Shown here in pieces: positions 3,001 to 18,000 of a stretch of DNA of 64,000 nt; the first letter of the stretch is position 1; each line of letters opens with the position of its first letter. The position numbers are program-made. Source of the DNA: an uncultured Candidatus Rokubacteria bacterium (GTDB lineage: Bacteria > Methylomirabilota > Methylomirabilia > Rokubacteriales > CSP1-6); the NCBI GenBank assembly GCA_963771355.1, contig CAVYTA010000002.1, forward strand, positions 1 to 64,000. Direction: 5' to 3'.

Positions 3001-6000
3001 ATGGCGATCGGGATCGCCGACGCCACGAGGATCAGCTTCCGCGGCAGACTCCGCTGGCTCAGGTGGGCGAAGGCGATGGTCAGTACCACGAGCGCCGACA
3101 AGAAACGGAGTCCGTTGCAGACCGTGGCCACGGTCAACGTGATGCCGGGGAGCTGGATCAGCACGCCGTCCAGGAAGAACGGGACGTCAAAGAGATCGAG
3201 CGCCGCCCCAGCGGTCCGCGCCGCGAAGAGCTGCAAGTCCTGGGTCACGGCGCTGACCACCGGGTTCGGGAGCGGCAGCATCAAGAGCAGGAATGCCACG
3301 GGGAAGGCCGCAGCCTGCAACGCGCGCGGCCCGAGGATCCAGAGCACCATGCCCGCCAGACACATGACCAGGGATACGCCCTGCAGGAGGAGGCTTTCGA
3401 TCGAGCGCCCGGCGAAGAGGAGTCCCAGCGCCAGCAGGATGACCGCAAGGCCGATCGCTGCCCCGGCGTGACGGCGGCTCGGATCCTTGCTCGGTCGGTC
3501 CAGAGCAAGAACGCGCTAAACGCAGGGACCAAGGGCCCATGCCCCGCATACGGATGCGTCCACCAGGCGTGGGCAAGGTCCCGGAGGGTGGGCGTGTAGA
3601 GGGGCGCCAGGATGAGCCCCCCGACTATGAGCTTGAGAAGAGCTGTTCGGTTCAAGGCCTGAGCCCGCGATCACGCAGGGCAGGCTCGAACACAATGAAC
3701 ATAGCCCGCCCGTTGTCAAGGCGCCAGGCTTTTCGGTGAAGTGACACTTCCATGGCCTCGCCGGCGTTCATCGACTCGGCCTGCCTCTCGCTGCGTTCTC
3801 CTGGGATTTCCTGATCTGCTCCAGTACTGGGTCCTGCGGCATCGCGCACTTGGCCGTCAGATCTGGCGTCGGGCACGCCCCCGGCATGAATTGCTCCGCG
3901 CCTGGCTGCTGCTGCGCGGCGCGCCGGGCGCGCTCAGTCTCCTGCCGGGCCTCGGTCCGACGGGCGGCGTCGGTCTCTTTGGCTTACGCACGCGCTCGGC
4001 CTCCGGCCTCACGCGCGCGCTCGATCTCTTCGGCCTTACGCGCGCGCGCGGCCTCCTGACGCGCCCTGCTCTTCTCCTTCGCCGCCTGGGCGGCTGCCTC
4101 TTGAGCCTGGGCCTCCGCCTGCCGTCGCGTTCCACCTCCGCCGCCCGGCGCTGGTGCTCGCGCTCTGCCGTCTCTTTGGCCTGGCGCCTGAGCTCGTACT
4201 CGCGCTGGGCTTCGTAGCAGGCGAAGTGACGTTCTATGTCGATCCGCTGGGCATGCGACGGCCGCACCGAGTTTGACCCGCTGCCAGTAGCTAAACAGCG
4301 CGTCAGGGAGAACTCGTCGGCTCCGGCAGGGACCACGAGCATGACGGCGGCCAGCCAGGCTCCGAGGAGCGACGTGTACACCCAGCCGCGACTCATCGCA
4401 CTCCCCCATCGCTTCGCACTACTTGAATAGGTCGTAGGAGGCGGAGATCATCCGGAGCATCCGCGGACACGTTAAGATCGCGGTGGCGGAGGTCGGACAT
4501 CAGGAGCGCGTCCGGATTGGTGGGGCTCGTGTCTGCCGGGCCGGGGTTCGATAGCACCCGTTCGTCAAGCAGCCTCACGGAGTCCTGAAGGGCCAGCATC
4601 GCTTACACCATCCTGTTGGTGCACGTCCCTGCGGTTGTCGTCGCAGTCTAATACATCGGGCTCAGCGCGCGCCAAGGATTCGTACACAAATTCATCGCCA
4701 AGACTTGTGTTAGTCGTGATACTCGTCCCTCTCGGCATCGTGACGCTCCTCCTGAGACGTGCTTGGCGAGAGCCCAGCGGCGCGGACAAACCGGTACTGC
4801 ATAATCTATGACGTTTTTTGCATAATTAAGGTAAGCATTTGCATTGGAAGACTGGCTTCCGTGGAATTCCGGAGCCCCGTCGATCGCGGCCGCCCGCGGG
4901 CCACCCCAAGAGACATTCTGGCTGAGGGCTAAGCGGTTCCTCTTTCGGCATTCCGGGGGCTTGTATCATCGGCACTGACTCAGGAGGAGGAGGAGGCTTT
5001 CAATGGAGCGCCCGGCGAAGAGGAGTCCAAGCGCTAGCGGGATCCTAGCAAGGCCGATCGAGTGCACTGGTCCCCGGCAGCATGGAGGAGGCTCTCCAAG
5101 AGCCCTCAGGTGGTTCCTTGCGCTGGCGCTGTTGTCGTCTCTGATCCTGCCTGTCCCCGCGGCGACAGCTCAGACCCTCGATCAATACGGCGGCTATACA
5201 TCCCTGCCCGTGCCGGGTGGCGCGACGGGGCGCTTCCGGGTCGGGAAACTCGGTAGTCGGTGGGTCTTTGTCACGCCCGCGGGCAATGCATTCTGGATGA
5301 CGGGGGTCTTCAACATTGATGTCGATAAGCGATTTGTCGATCTTGCGGCAAAGTACGGCGGGACAAACCCGCAGGCATCGTTTGGCATCCAGGCGACCAA
5401 GCGCCTGACATCGTGGGGCTTCAATTCCGTCGCGGAGTACTCGTCGGCCTATGTGTACCCGTATCGAGCGGGTGTCGTGAAAATGCCCGCGATGATCATG
5501 GCTCGACCGACGTCGGCGGGGCTCGGGAACTCGGGGAATCGCGCGCCTGCAGGCGGCGCCTACAAGGACATGATCGACTCGTTGGGTCCCGTCTATACGA
5601 ATGCGCGGCGCTCATTCCCTGACGTGTTCGACCCCGCGTACGCAACGTATGTCAATGCCTACATGCCGGCTCTTGTGGTGAACGATCCCTTCTGGGGTGG
5701 GCTGGCGAGCTTGCCGTGGTGCATCGGCGTCAGCGTGGACGACGCGGACGATCTCTTTGGATTCGGGCCGGGCCCAGAGGTGCCCTCGGCACGCGTCCAT
5801 CCGCATCCCTCGTGGTATGCCATTGCGGCATCCCCAGGCAAGGCGTCCAGCGCGAAGTGGAAGCAGACGTACACCGACACCAAGGTCTACACGAAGTACG
5901 CTTTGCAGAGATTCCTTCAGGGGCGTTACGCGACTATTGGCGCCCTGAACACGGCGTGGGGGTCAAACTACACGACGTGGGACAGTGCCGGCGGCTGGGG

Positions 6001-15000: not shown

Positions 15001-18000
15001 CAGGCGGCCAAGGAGAAGAGCAGGGCGCGTCAGGAGGCCGCGCGCGCGCGTAAGGCCGAAGAGGTCGAGCGCGCGCGGAGGCCCGTGAGGCCAAAGAGAT
15101 CGACGCCGCCCGTCGGATCGAGGCCCAGCAGGAGACTGAGCGCGCCCGGCGTGCCGCGCACAGGAGCGCGCGGAGCAATTCATGCCCCGAGCGTGCGCGA
15201 CGCCAGATCTGATCGCCAAGTGCGCGATGTCACAGGACCCAGTACTGGAGCAGATCAGGAAATCCCAGGAGAACGCAGCGAGAGGCAGGCCGAGTCGATG
15301 AACGCCGGCGAGGCCATGGAAGTGTCACTTCGCCGAAAAGCCTGACGCCTTGACAACGGGCGGGTATGTTCATTGTGTTCGAGCCTGCCTGCGTGATCGC
15401 GGGCTCAGGCCTTGAACCAAACAACTCTTCTCAAGCTCATAGTCTCGGGACTCATCCTGGCGCCCCTCTACGCGCCCGTCGCCCGAGACCTTGCCCAGGC
15501 CTGGTGGACGCATCAGTACGCGGGGCATGGGCCCTTGGTCCCTGCGTTTAGCGCGTTCGTGCTCTGGACCGATCGAGCCCGGATCCGAGCCGCCGCCACG
15601 CCGGGGCACGTGATCGGCCTTGCGGTCATCCTGCTGGCGCTGGGACTCCTCTTCGCCGGGCGCTCGACCGCAAGCCTCCTCCTGCAGGGTGTGTCCCTCG
15701 TCATGTGTCTGGCGGGTATGGTGCTCTGGATCCTCGGGCCGCGAACGTTGCAGGCCGCGGCCTTCCCCGTCGCATTCCTTCTATTCATGCTGCCCCTCCC
15801 GAGCCCGGTGGTCAGCGCCGTGACCGAGGACTTGCAGCTCTTCGCGGCGTGGATCGCTGGGGCGGCGCTCGATGCTTTTGACGTCCCCTTCTTTCTGGAC
15901 GGCGTACAGATCCAGCTTCCCGGCATCACGCTGGCCGTGGCCACGGTCTGCAACGGGCTCCGCTTCCTGTTGGCGCTCCTGGTGGTGACCATCGCCTTCG
16001 CCCACCTGAGCCAGCGGAGTCTGCCGCGCAAGCTGATCCTGATAGCCTCGGCGCTCCCGATCGCCATCCTGGCCAACGCGGTCCGCGTTGCCACAATTGC
16101 CCTCGCTGCGTACTATATCGGGCCCAGCGCGGCGCAAGGCTTCATCCATGACTCCATCGCCAAGGGTGTGTGGGCCATTACCCTCGTGCCGCTCGTCATT
16201 TTGGCGTTCATCCTGCGACGCGGTGGTGAAAGCCCACGCCTCGAAGCATCTCATTCGGTACCACTCGGAGGGGCGTCACGATGAAGCGTGGGTCCTCCGC
16301 CTATTTTCTGCTTTTACTCGTTGGGCTCGCGTTCCTCAGCCTCAGCTGCTCCCGGAGCCCCGAGGCCACGAAGGCCAGGCACTGGCAGCGCGGACTGAGT
16401 TTCGCGGAGAAGGAAAAGACCGCGAAGCCATCCTCGAATTCCGTAGATTCCTCGTCCTCGACCCCAACCACGCCGAGGCCTACTACCGGATCGGGCTCGC
16501 CGCCTTCAAGCTCGGGGAGGGCTCGCTCGCGCAAACAGCCCTGACCAAGAGCCTGGAGCTGAACCCGGAGCAACCAGATGCCAGGTTGAAGCTCGCCACC
16601 GTGCTCATCGCCAGGCGGGATTGGGCCAAGGCCCGCGACCAGATTCAGACCGTCCAGGCGAAGGATGCAACAAATCATGACGCCCGGCTTCTCATGGCTG
16701 CCGTCTACGAAGGGGAAGGAGACCGAAAGCGCGCAATCGCAGAGCTGGCCCCCATCGTGGAGAACAGGCCTGATGATGCTCGAAGTCATGCTGCTCTGGG
16801 CGAGCTTCTGCGGGCACAGGAGGATAATCAGGGCGCGGAGAAGCATATGCTCGAGGCCATTCGCCTCGCCCCCACCAAGATCGAGTATCGCCTGGCCCTG
16901 GCGAACCACTATCGCAGGCTCGGACAAGCAGCTCGAGCCGAGGCAACCTACAAGGAAACTCTCAAGATCGATGATCCTGCCTCCGCCCCGGTCAAGCTGG
17001 CGCTGGCGGACTTCTACGACAGTCAGCAGCGCTGGGCGGAGGCCGAGGCGCTTTTACTCGAGATGCTCGCCAAGAACCCGGACAACGTCCGGGCCCGTCA
17101 CGGACTGATCAGCGTGCTACTGAAAGAAGGGAAACTGTCCGATGCGAGAAGGGAGCTGAAGACGCTTCTTGCCAAGAATCCCTCGGATGTGGAGGGGCAC
17201 TATTACCTGGGGCGACTCGAGCTGCGTGAGAATCACCTCCAAGAGGCCATCCAGGAGTTCCTCCAAGCGGTGAAGCTCGAGCCGCGGCTGGCCCGAGCCC
17301 ACCACAGCCTTGGGCTGGCGTACCTCCGGAGTGGAAATCTTCCCCAGGCGAGACAGGCCTTCAGGGCAGCTCTCAACGCTGCCCCAGACTCCATCGAGTC
17401 AGCGTTGCAGCTAGCCGAGTCGGACCTCCGGCAGGCGCTACGCAGCCAGCGATCGAGGGCTTGGAAAGGCTAATTGCAAAGCGACCCGATACAGTCCACG
17501 CGTATGTGCTATTGGGCTCAGCGTACCTGGCGAAAAGAGAGGCCGTCAAGGCAACCGAGATTTATCGCAAGCTGTTGAAGCTGGCGCCCAAGGACCCGCA
17601 GGGTCCCTACCTTGTCGGGGTTGGCCTCCGCGCTCAAGGGAAAACGCCTGAGGCCAAGAAGCACTTCGAGACGGCTCTCGATCTTGCGCCCGCTCATGTG
17701 CCTGCGCTCGAGCAGCTAGTCTCCATGGCGCTCGCCGAGAAGCAACCCGACGCCGCTCTCGAGCGCGTCAAGAGGCAGCTCGCACTTGCTCCGAAGTCCC
17801 CGCAACTTTATTCCGAATTGGGGCGGGTCCATGAAGCAAGAAAGGAAACCGGCCTCGCCGAGACCGCTTATTTGAAGGCCCTCGAGCTGGAGCCACGGAT
17901 GTTCAGCGCATTCATGCGGTTGGCAAATCTTTACTCAAGTTCAGGGCAGTACGATCAAGGAATCGCGAAGCTGAATGGCGCGCTCAAACTGGACCCGAAG

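Follow-up and report, generated by a model that had tools for sequence, protein, structure and literature searches.

A c-di-GMP-I riboswitch aptamer with a C92U change ahead of GH50-like genes in an inverted-repeat exosortase locus of a Rokubacteria genome

The c-di-GMP-I (GEMM-I) riboswitch (RF01051) is known from its type example, Vc2 of Vibrio cholerae, a three-helix aptamer with a GNRA loop and junction bases that include G20 and A47. Two variant families are modelled separately, RF03168 (UAU) and RF03167 (GGC); we infer that their names give the bases at positions 20, 47 and 92, and the GGC consensus, when checked, has G, G and C there. In the GEMM-Ib riboswitches for 3′,3′-cGAMP (G20A type), one binding-pocket change retargets the same fold, as far as the available text of the two sources goes (PMC7288161; PMC7266159), and a table in the former pairs G20A with cGAMP and G20A/C92U with c-di-AMP. 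The exosortase system closest to our locus is the XrtA/PEP-CTERM system, with the EpsH exosortase, the PrsT TPR lipoprotein and the PrsK/PrsR regulators. Our study examined a 64 000-nucleotide stretch (the window) from an uncultured Candidatus Rokubacteria bacterium of the order Rokubacteriales, in which aptamers, GH50-like genes and exosortase genes lie together.

The two aptamers of the window scored 70.3 bits with RF03168 (E 6.6e-15; cut-off 65.9 bits), 68.4 with RF01051 (cut-off 35 bits) and 66.1 with RF03167, which reproduces the RF03168 matches of the initial annotation, and 93.5 bits with a covariance model made from 28 aptamers of the order. The aptamer helices covary, with 98.9 % of cells paired, 8 pairs changed on both sides and an observed score that none of 500 shuffles reached. 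In the window copies, G is the last unpaired base before the 2 bp helix, A follows that helix, and U, not C, precedes the 3′ strand of P1 (position 92); outside U92, the remaining conserved bases are intact, and one base fewer lies in the junction that leads from P1 to the next helix, as is also the case at locus L016. The diagnostic bases G20/A47/U92 therefore identify a canonical c-di-GMP-I aptamer, of a lineage common in the order, in which one ligand-contact base is changed (C92U). In Vc2, the same change lowered the in vivo response to c-di-GMP 30-fold and a cyclase rescued it partly, according to the accessible part of the preprint (bioRxiv 10.1101/617340), so c-di-GMP sensing may be weak or lost here. 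The ligand is probably c-di-GMP, bound more weakly owing to U92.

Across the order, RF03168 matched 87 of 151 genomes at E≤0.001 and exceeded its cut-off in 29, in agreement with the earlier count of 71 of 121 and 25. The aptamers above the RF03168 or RF03167 cut-off carry the canonical G20/A47/C92, as did 24 of 26 parsed aptamers in the top loci; aligned aptamers of relatives had A47 in 28/28 and C92 in 26/28, and a pattern search located 85 sites of the A47/C92 form, spread over 57 of 150 other genomes. Two A20 aptamers (G014 and G026) are present in the order, at loci other than this one. The downstream gene classes named previously, response-regulator receivers and Ig/FN3/CARDB proteins, were found again 3′ of the relatives' aptamers. 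However, since these aptamers are canonical, the proposed regulon is that of ordinary c-di-GMP-I riboswitches and is uninformative on any orphan ligand.

The likeness to beta-agarase that had been proposed for the enzyme was borne out. GH50 chains were the only matches of the family profile in the PDB (E 3.5e-32), and Foldseek, with an AF2 model of copy 1 (pLDDT 89), gave GH50 as the best structural matches (E 1.4e-24; TM 0.68 on 5t3b); Pfam and NCBIfam models gave no match to the GH50-like proteins. Family residues include D246, D/E247, an invariant D249 and a putative nucleophile, E449, in 27 of 33 sequences. As judged from these sequences, acidic residues are kept but a clear GH50 acid/base Glu is lacking, so that hydrolase activity is not assured. 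The substrate would be the locus's own exopolysaccharide.

The exosortase and TPR flanks described on both sides were confirmed by PF09721 and TPR families. The 191-aa ORF of the left exosortase spans only profile positions 85–251, and no exosortase subtype model reached its cut-off (best XrtW, 225.6 vs 425). No PEP-CTERM protein gene was found in the window; genome G000 has 6 GGDEF domains and 3 PEP-CTERM matches. An exosortase homologue lay nearby in 34 of 154 GH50-like loci (26/76 genome loci within ±6 kb and 8/78 metagenome loci within ±4 kb), and an aptamer stood directly 5′ of an intact GH50-like ORF in six of the relatives' loci (2/76 genome: L049, 567 aa, and L101, 809 aa; 4/78 metagenome: L179, 754 aa, L195, 566 aa, L122 and L147), whose leaders are alignable past the aptamer. 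The order at L049, exosortase, aptamer and intact gene, matches that of each window arm, and a PrsK-like kinase (below cut-off) and a sigma-54 response regulator are also present there. These data support the view that the aptamer is positioned to control a secreted GH50-like gene belonging to exosortase/PEP-CTERM loci. The earlier proposal of a switch for exoenzymes of the exosortase system thus stands as regards placement, but not as regards an orphan variant. Literature searches for exosortase with c-di-GMP and riboswitch, and for exosortase with GH50, returned, in the portions of text retrieved, no link between a c-di-GMP-I riboswitch and GH50-like enzymes encoded in exosortase loci. To our knowledge, a riboswitch-controlled glycosidase is no part of the XrtA/PEP-CTERM system as described.

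Table 1. Features of the palindromic exosortase locus, in window coordinates
Feature	Position	Strand	Evidence or remark
TPR protein, left arm, PrsT-like, intact 730 aa	601..2793	-	TPR Pfam families; TIGR02917 PrsT 336.1 bits, cut-off 312.2
Exosortase, left arm, frameshift-split near 3474	2790..3616	-	PF09721 in two pieces, 2865-3473 and 3476-3616
1.1 kb repeat, no coding signal	3732..4843		Mirror copy 14270-15337; third copy on contig C6
Exosortase 5′-region fragment, fused to start of GH50-like copy 1	4988..5060		Mirror 14043-14125; direct repeats D12, D14
GH50-like copy 1 (outer, short form), intact 579-aa ORF	5003..6742	+	Native ATG changed to AGA
GEMM-I (c-di-GMP-I) aptamer, G20/A47/U92	7100..7180	+	Covariance-model matches; MFE fold gives aptamer helices
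Predicted hairpin sequestering Shine-Dalgarno (7208-7215) and AUG (7223-7225)	7191..7231	+	Sequence; MFE folds
GH50-like copy 2 (inner, long form, C-terminal Ig-like part), heavily broken	7223..9413	+	
Palindrome centre (~9555), between two convergent stop codons, no spacer	9414..9696		Arms alignable to 9555, ~89 % identity
GH50-like copy 3 (inner, long form), at least 3 frame changes	9697..11896	-	tblastn frames -3, -1, -3, -2
Second GEMM-I aptamer, 100 % identical to the first	11939..12019	-	Covariance-model matches
GH50-like copy 4 (outer), broken	12380..14110	-	7 indels, none a multiple of 3
Exosortase, right arm, intact 290 aa	15412..16284	+	PF09721 E 9e-60; TIGR02602 160.7 bits, cut-off 105.55
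TPR gene, right arm, three frames, ORFs of 461 and 332 aa	16275..18459	+	tblastn with left copy, frames 3, 2, 1; Pfam TPR

The mirror-image arrangement noted in the initial annotation was recovered, although its reported extent was too small. By blastn, the arms 599–9588 and 18461–9521 are 86.5 % identical (1070 mismatches, 103 gap openings); the palindrome therefore measures about 9 kb per arm, with a total extent of 599–18461; the left flank (1–598) is unique and without a mirror copy. Identity between the arms was lowest in the TPR genes (73 %) and highest around the aptamer (99.3 %), and mismatches by codon position were 128/84/288 for the TPR genes and 24/23/63 for GH50-like copies 1 and 4. 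The 1.1 kb repeat is 89 and 83 % identical to C6:2747077–2748179 (blastn), with mismatches that lack codon bias (29/23/27 and 37/36/27), and had no match in Pfam or NCBIfam searches. There are four GH50-like copies, one intact and three frame-broken, as first described, with identities of 75–94 % rather than the 80–88 % given earlier. In copy 1, the ATG falls within the exosortase 5′-region fragment, and the native start codon, kept by the inner copies and by homologue P0001, is gone. Lineage-specific substitutions by codon position were 8/9/21 with 1 indel in copy 1, 7/8/17 with 3 indels in copy 3 and 8/10/21 with 6 indels in copy 4; copy 2 had 157 (54/52/51) and 34 indel events, among its breaks a single nucleotide missing at 7247/7248 when set against the mirror copy, and its C-terminus aligns with P0002 residues 563–737 in two frames. 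Read in one frame, copy 3 contains 4 in-frame stops. In the assembly, the three broken enzyme copies, which include both of those behind a riboswitch, are accompanied by one broken exosortase and one broken TPR gene. The breaks in the three copies come from decay or local assembly error, and the locus looks redundant and decaying. The third-position bias in copies 3 and 4 fits recently functional genes, or intact genes with indel errors of assembly, so decay is not proven.

The whole is probably best explained by a c-di-GMP-I riboswitch (C92U) that controls translation of an exopolysaccharide-associated GH50-like glycosidase in a duplicated, apparently decaying module, a reading that builds on what was observed directly: the identity of the aptamer and its diagnostic bases, the gene family, the surroundings and the structure of the duplication. 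The aptamer ends 42 nt 5′ of the AUG of the GH50-like gene, whose product is secreted and carries an Ig-like domain at its C-terminus, and this gene is accessory to a PEP-CTERM/exosortase exopolysaccharide locus (exosortase and PrsT-like TPR protein); in this genome, the enzyme module was duplicated in tandem and the entire locus duplicated in inverted orientation. Control would most likely be translational, through a hairpin 3′ of the aptamer that buries the Shine-Dalgarno sequence and the AUG. Such hairpins occur in the MFE folds of both the window and L195 (L195 z -3.2), and the window leader has no U-tract between aptamer and AUG. A purine-rich GGAAGGG beside the 3′ side of P1 could pair either with the 5′ flank, giving an extended P1 and a closed aptamer, or with the anti-SD strand, and from this alternative pairing ligand binding would most likely turn translation off. 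However, the window fold showed no clear advantage over shuffles (z -1.4). The expression platforms at L049 and L101 are not alike, which leaves the direction of switching uncertain.

Two other accounts of the aptamer were weighed. The initial annotation took these to be c-di-GMP-I-UAU aptamers of unknown ligand, with the order as the variant's main home and a regulon that would reveal the ligand. We regard this as very unlikely. The RF03168 bit score is indeed the highest of the three clan models, 29 genomes exceed that family's cut-off and position 92 is U, matching the variant name, but position 20 is G where the name calls for U. No U20 was found in aptamers of the order's genomes, and the combination U20+A47+U92 occurs in 0 of 183, against the many A47/C92 sites. 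The canonical relatives L003 and L004 reach 73.4 bits on RF03168 and outscore the window, so this score does not discriminate. Nor do cmscan labels favour a variant: RF03167 was the clan winner at the window sites although RF03168 scored higher, and all 20 tested relatives' loci were called 'GGC', yet G47 was found in 0 of 151 genomes. The orphan identity was dropped, as the diagnostic bases contradict it. It is somewhat easier to envisage, though still rather improbable, that U92 defines a functional natural GEMM-I subclass with altered ligand preference or affinity, the candidates being 3′,3′-cGAMP (its adenine paired with U92) or c-di-GMP, with a response at high levels only. U92 appears at three independent places: the window, G097 (ahead of a small lipoprotein gene, and the only other case in the genome sample) and metagenome locus L195, whose leader shares 94 % identity across 574 nt with the C92 leader at L179. 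Other aptamer positions are fully conserved, and changes at positions 20 and 92 retarget the fold, as far as the text of PMC7288161 at hand describes. Against this, U92 is rare (3 sites vs 85 with C92 in the order sample) and lacks a gene class of its own, as homologous genes have C92 aptamers (L026 vs L031; L179, L049 and L101 vs the window and L195); drift at local divergence predicts one change per 81 nt, with the L179 and L195 leaders differing at 31/574 positions, and both window genes behind aptamers are broken.

Alternatively, assembly or polishing of a four-copy repeat close to the end of a contig may have produced the palindrome, the frame breaks or both as artefacts, in which case the locus would really be simpler and carry intact genes. 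This we consider unlikely, albeit a serious contender. The palindrome begins 599 nt from the contig start and its two arms meet without a spacer, 96 of 121 between-arm indel events are single-base, and the codon-biased substitutions of copies 3 and 4 with few frame-breaking indels are what consensus errors in working genes would give. Furthermore, contigs of two other samples have an extra T after 16418, precisely where the reading frame of the right TPR gene breaks. Copy 2 carries some 5 times more private changes than the matching copy in the other arm, and a copy 2-like contig was found in none of four other runs. However, the unmirrored left flank is unlike a fold-back chimera, arm identity is uneven, the third-position mismatch bias between arms indicates evolutionary divergence rather than noise, homopolymers of at least 3 bases account for just 6 of 69 extra bases, such a repeat is present at only 1 of 16 contig ends, and the genome is 99.77 % complete.

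Compared with the described systems, the c-di-GMP-I riboswitch with C92U shares with RF01051 the three-helix fold, the GNRA loop, the conserved junction bases, G20 and A47 among them, and a place in the 5′ leader of genes for secreted or envelope proteins, but differs from it in U92, in the shortened junction and in the following gene, which encodes a GH50-like enzyme and belongs to an exosortase locus. The backbones of RF03168 and RF03167 are so alike that the window and its canonical relatives exceed both cut-offs; the window shares U92 with the UAU variant but has G20 where that has U20, and has A47 where the GGC variant has G47. In the GEMM-Ib cGAMP riboswitches the changed base is position 20, whereas the window keeps G20 and changes position 92. 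The GH50 beta-agarases matched by profile and structure (exo-beta-agarase 4bq2/4bq4/4bq5, AgWH50C 5z6p, PfGH50B 6xj9 and BpGH50 5t3b) are 17–19 % identical to the window family, in which the D-D/E-x-D motif aligns with their acid/base Glu. The hosts of this family are not marine agar degraders but soil Acidobacteriota, Methylomirabilota/Rokubacteria and Dormibacterota, in which it adjoins exosortase genes, and in the window it is flanked by exosortase and PrsT-like genes, a feature shared with the XrtA/PEP-CTERM system.

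In the window, a c-di-GMP-I riboswitch module that serves a GH50-like enzyme linked to exosortases is present as a duplicated locus, probably in decay. Rfam searching placed two GEMM-I clan aptamers of identical sequence in the two arms of a palindrome, and these are the only RF03168 (c-di-GMP-I-UAU) matches in the genome. The score reported by the initial annotation was reproduced (70.3 bits, E 6.6e-15, against a cut-off of 65.9), and its observation of aptamers ahead of secreted glycosidase-like genes in a mirror-image exosortase locus is real, whereas its assignment of the aptamers to the UAU variant and its 'orphan regulon' are not upheld.

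Features of the locus and related repeats (contig C2 unless stated), with changes private to each GH50-like gene copy
Feature	Position	Strand	Private substitutions (by codon position)	Private indel events
Left arm of palindrome	599-9555
Right arm of palindrome	9556-18461
1.1-kb repeat, left arm	3732-4843
1.1-kb repeat, right arm	14270-15337
1.1-kb repeat, contig C6	C6:2747077-2748179 (locus L120:3078-4180)
GH50-like copy 1	5003-6742	+	38 (8/9/21)	1
GH50-like copy 2 (inner left)			157 (54/52/51)	34
GH50-like copy 3 (inner right)			32 (7/8/17)	3
GH50-like copy 4 (outer right)			39 (8/10/21)	6
Aptamer, left arm	7100-7180	+
Predicted hairpin after left aptamer	7191-7231
Shine-Dalgarno sequence	7208-7215
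AUG	7223
Aptamer, right arm	11939-12019	-
Ser/Thr-kinase-like gene	19649-21238
Ser/Thr-kinase-like paralogue	33013-34739
Ser/Thr-kinase-like paralogue, contig C6	C6:2744864-2746336
Short repeat of about 100 nt	about 21123-21225

Both sites also matched the canonical c-di-GMP-I model RF01051 at 68.4 bits (curated cut-off 35) and the GGC variant model RF03167 at 66.1 bits, the latter being retained by cmscan as the best of the clan. As three sister models give similar scores, the class cannot be named by score, and the RF03168 value does not discriminate, since canonical relatives reach up to 73.4 bits on that model. The helices of the cmscan structure line, with a GNRA-type loop (GCGA), agree with the minimum free energy (MFE) fold, and the aptamer alignment showed covariation (98.9 % of cells paired, eight pairs altered on both strands, and none of 500 shuffles scoring as high). 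Three columns are diagnostic in Vc2 numbering, namely position 20, the unpaired base immediately 5' of the 2-bp helix, position 47, the first base after that helix, and position 92, the unpaired base ahead of the 3' strand of P1. In the canonical class, position 47 is an A lying between the two guanines of the ligand. Positions G20 and C92 contact those two guanines, according to 10.1101/617340. Both window aptamers read G20/A47/U92, with a junction one base shorter, and the context of U92 is CUGUCGAAG where relatives read CU(A/G)CCGAAG. The canonical G20 and A47 are thus present and only position 92 departs; U92 is what the UAU variant would carry, but position 20 is G rather than the U deduced from the family name, whose three letters presumably stand for the bases at 20/47/92. 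The RF03167 consensus has G, G and C at the three columns, whereas the window aptamers, like every one of the 28 aligned aptamers, have A at position 47. With G20 in place of U20 and A47 in place of G47, the window aptamers are neither UAU nor GGC and, judged by their sequence, are canonical c-di-GMP-I aptamers apart from C92U. The parts of the reviews PMC5473149, PMC7266159 and PMC10043782 that were available contain no description of the two variants, and PMC12452182 merely lists their names.

In the order, RF03168 had matches at E<=0.001 in 87 of the 151 genomes searched, with 29 genomes over the cut-off and none of the six sampled genomes from the same genus among the matches. Of 29 loci fetched from relatives, 20 (L003-L022) were run through cmscan and every one was labelled RF03167, at 69-78 bits, while the diagnostic bases could be parsed in 26 and read G20/A47/C92 in 24, with one A20 (L025) and one U92 (L031). 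Pattern scans of the 151 genomes, which fix the backbone of this lineage such that divergent aptamers would escape, found A47/C92 at 85 sites in 57 genomes, U92 in the genome under study (two sites) and in G097 (one site) only, and G47 in none, despite the RF03167 labels. The three non-G20 sites read A, A and C, with no U20 among them, and a pattern for the combination U20, A47 and U92 was found in 0 of 183 genomes of the order. In 20 of 20 loci, clan competition in Rfam gave the name 'c-di-GMP-I-GGC' to aptamers of the canonical G20/A47/C92 type, which is a pitfall for automatic annotation. The two A20 aptamers (L025/L118, G014:C100; L117, G026:C56), one of which precedes an MlaC-family gene, carry the signature of the cGAMP-type GEMM-Ib, and the third non-G20 aptamer has C20 (L119, G039:C12). 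In L031/L032 (G097:C71) a U92 aptamer precedes a small lipoprotein gene, and the homologous gene in L026 (G126:C400) has a C92 aptamer ahead of it. The 20 downstream genes tested comprised four single-domain response regulators, three Ig/FN3/CARDB proteins, one STAS-GNAT protein, one MlaC protein and 11 without a family, and the order's downstream genes are a typical GEMM regulon. What had been proposed as the regulon of an orphan variant belongs to ordinary c-di-GMP-I riboswitches that pass the variant models; as RF03167 and RF03168 fire on canonical aptamers in this order, counts of 'variant riboswitches' drawn from such matches are uninformative about an orphan ligand, and a false lead is removed.

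The gene that the module would control belongs to a large family that current models miss. Copy 1 is an intact ORF of 579 aa without a match to any Pfam or NCBIfam model, as was also the case for ORFs in the 3.4-5.0 kb, 9.07-9.69 kb and 18.4-19.4 kb stretches. It has 246 homologues at E<=0.001 (best 83 % identity), most of them unnamed and encoded in metagenome-assembled genomes (MAGs) of Acidobacteriota, Methylomirabilota/Rokubacteria and Dormibacterota, and many carry C-terminal Ig-like domains. A 33-member family profile retrieved only GH50 beta-agarases from the PDB (E 3.5e-32), and an AlphaFold model (pLDDT 89, pTM 0.85) was placed by Foldseek closest to GH50, followed by GH42 and GH5, so that both sequence and fold resemble the GH50 catalytic domain. 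Enzymes of clan GH-A share a conserved pair of catalytic glutamates, the acid/base and the nucleophile. In this family a putative nucleophile, E449, is kept in 27 of 33 sequences, and a clear GH50 acid/base glutamate is not conserved; the acid/base region of GH50, mapped by eye from one pairwise alignment, aligns to D246, D/E247, x and D249, acidic residues that are kept in the family, D249 invariantly. The native N-terminus, which the inner copies share with the homologue P0002, was read by eye as a Sec signal peptide.

Each arm pairs an exosortase gene (intact right copy: PF09721, E 9e-60; TIGR02602, 160.7 bits against a cut-off of 105.55) with a PrsT-like TPR gene. The left TPR copy scored 336.1 bits (cut-off 312.2) with the PrsT equivalog model, its 730-aa protein matching the 899-position profile in three stretches. 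No TIGR02595 PEP-CTERM match lies inside the window, and the genome has three over the cut-off, on contigs C5 and C7. GH50-like loci of relatives were gathered with alignment queries, single-protein locus scans having returned none. With the window exosortase as the query, a homologue was found within 6 kb either side of the GH50-like gene in 26/76 genome loci and within 4 kb in 8/78 metagenome loci, giving 34 of 154, or about a fifth. As the genome under study has three exosortase loci in 5.5 Mb, we estimate chance adjacency at <1 %. The GH50-like family looks like an unrecognized accessory family of PEP-CTERM/exosortase systems; our literature searches found nothing on exosortases with GH50, nor on Rokubacteria with riboswitches.

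The arms of the palindrome align to the centre without a spacer. Their identity is 73-82 % in the TPR genes, rises to 90-95 % once the exosortase is reached, and is 99.3 % in the stretch that surrounds the aptamer (6899-7198). Mismatches favour third codon positions (128/84/288 in the TPR genes; 24/23/63 between copies 1 and 4), the 598-nt left flank is unique, and only this one of 16 contig ends bears such a repeat. Together, these sequence features argue for a real, old inverted duplication with patchy gene conversion; a simple fold-back chimera was rejected on account of the unique flank. Within each arm the enzyme gene is tandemly duplicated at a spacing of ~2.1 kb. The outer copies begin with a fragment of the exosortase gene (D12, D14), their native ATG is changed, and the order-trained model found no riboswitch ahead of them in the window at E<=1. 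A 505-nt contig of run X5 joins window position 11484 to 13601, skipping 2116 nt, so that a related population has a single enzyme gene at the place of the tandem copies 3 and 4.

Copy 2 is frameshifted at codon 9 by a 1-nt deletion missing from its mirror, copy 3 has at least three frame changes, and the left exosortase and right TPR genes are split, the mirror partner of each being intact, a picture that reciprocal loss after duplication explains well. An assembly or consensus artefact behind the palindrome or the frame breaks is, in our judgement, unlikely. The codon-biased private substitutions of copies 3 and 4, together with an extra T after 16418 in contigs from two other samples, do allow for local consensus errors. 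Between the arms, 96 of 121 indels are single bases, and they rarely fall in homopolymers (6 of 69 extra bases). A search of sequencing runs listed 13, the best containing 0.10 of the sequence words, with no RNA run among them. Four of the runs (X1, X2, X5 and X7) gave short contigs whose 90-99 % identity points to related populations; the palindrome centre is spanned by none of them, and they leave 7338-10005 nearly bare.

The window takes up the opening 64 kb of C2 (130 kb), part of a genome of 5.5 Mb, eight contigs and 69.7 % G+C, and the first 19 kb of this contig have about 58-68 % G+C. This low-G+C stretch holds the genome's only two aptamers and only GH50-like genes, and neither RF03168 in six same-genus genomes nor the pattern scans in six or seven found an aptamer, which together suggests an acquired island. 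A 1.1-kb repeat, 83-89 % identical among its three copies, shows neither codon-position bias nor a family match, and part of it resembles the junction at which the 3' end of the exosortase gene meets the 5' end of the TPR gene. Its C6 copy adjoins a paralogue of the Ser/Thr-kinase-like gene, whose three members share 80-84 % DNA identity, one lying at the island boundary. The recurrent stretch of about 100 nt occurs in >15 places in the genome at 80-92 % identity, as well as in all seven other same-genus genomes searched, and has the look of a short dispersed repeat.

When the relatives' GH50-like loci were scanned with a covariance model built from 28 of the order's aptamers, the riboswitch-enzyme arrangement recurred. 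An aptamer lay directly upstream of the enzyme gene in 2/76 genome loci (L049 and L101, from the same NC10 MAG, both C92, with intact ORFs of 567 and 809 aa) and in 4/78 metagenome loci (L179, L195, L122 and L147, ORFs closed). L049 has the layout of a window arm, with aptamer and enzyme on the strand opposite to that of a PrsK-like gene and an exosortase, and the leaders of these loci can be aligned past the aptamer. In L195, a U92 aptamer precedes an intact GH50-like gene of 566 aa. The leaders of L195 and L179, the latter with C92, share 94 % identity over 574 nt, although their enzymes are only 42 % identical. U92 is thus a derived state that recurs and is also found outside broken loci; it is, however, rare, and no particular class of genes goes with it.

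In the window, the MFE fold extends P1 by pairing the 5' flank with GGAAGGG, and a hairpin buries the Shine-Dalgarno sequence GGAGGAGG and the AUG. The L195 leader is predicted to fold in the same way (z -3.2), the window's own fold does not beat shuffled sequences (z -1.4), and the platforms of L049 and L101 differ. A transcription terminator was discounted by eye, there being no U-run between 7180 and 7223. GGAAGGG may pair instead with the anti-Shine-Dalgarno strand, in which case ligand binding would lock it into P1, keep the Shine-Dalgarno sequence buried and make the element an OFF switch.

With six GGDEF domains encoded in the genome, c-di-GMP is most likely the ligand of aptamers with this sequence. 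It is quite doubtful that G20/A47/U92 marks a functional natural GEMM-I subclass, arisen repeatedly before exosortase-linked GH50-like genes and either preferring another cyclic dinucleotide (3',3'-cGAMP, through an adenine-U92 pair) or requiring very high c-di-GMP; were it true, matrix-cutting enzymes would have their own signal threshold. With c-di-GMP as the ligand, these riboswitches gain a concrete target in secreted GH50-like proteins, a large family that no model covers, and a biofilm second messenger is tied to polysaccharide systems of the PEP-CTERM/exosortase type in soil Methylomirabilota and Acidobacteriota. The near-identical natural leaders of L179 and L195 are suited to testing how one ligand-contact base tunes an aptamer, and the natural C92U change merits a binding test. 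By analogy with Vc2, the window pair probably binds c-di-GMP more weakly: C92U in Vc2 lowers the in vivo response 30-fold and a cyclase partly restores it, as stated in 10.1101/617340, and the double change G20A/C92U produces a GEMM-I aptamer that binds c-di-AMP (PMC7288161).
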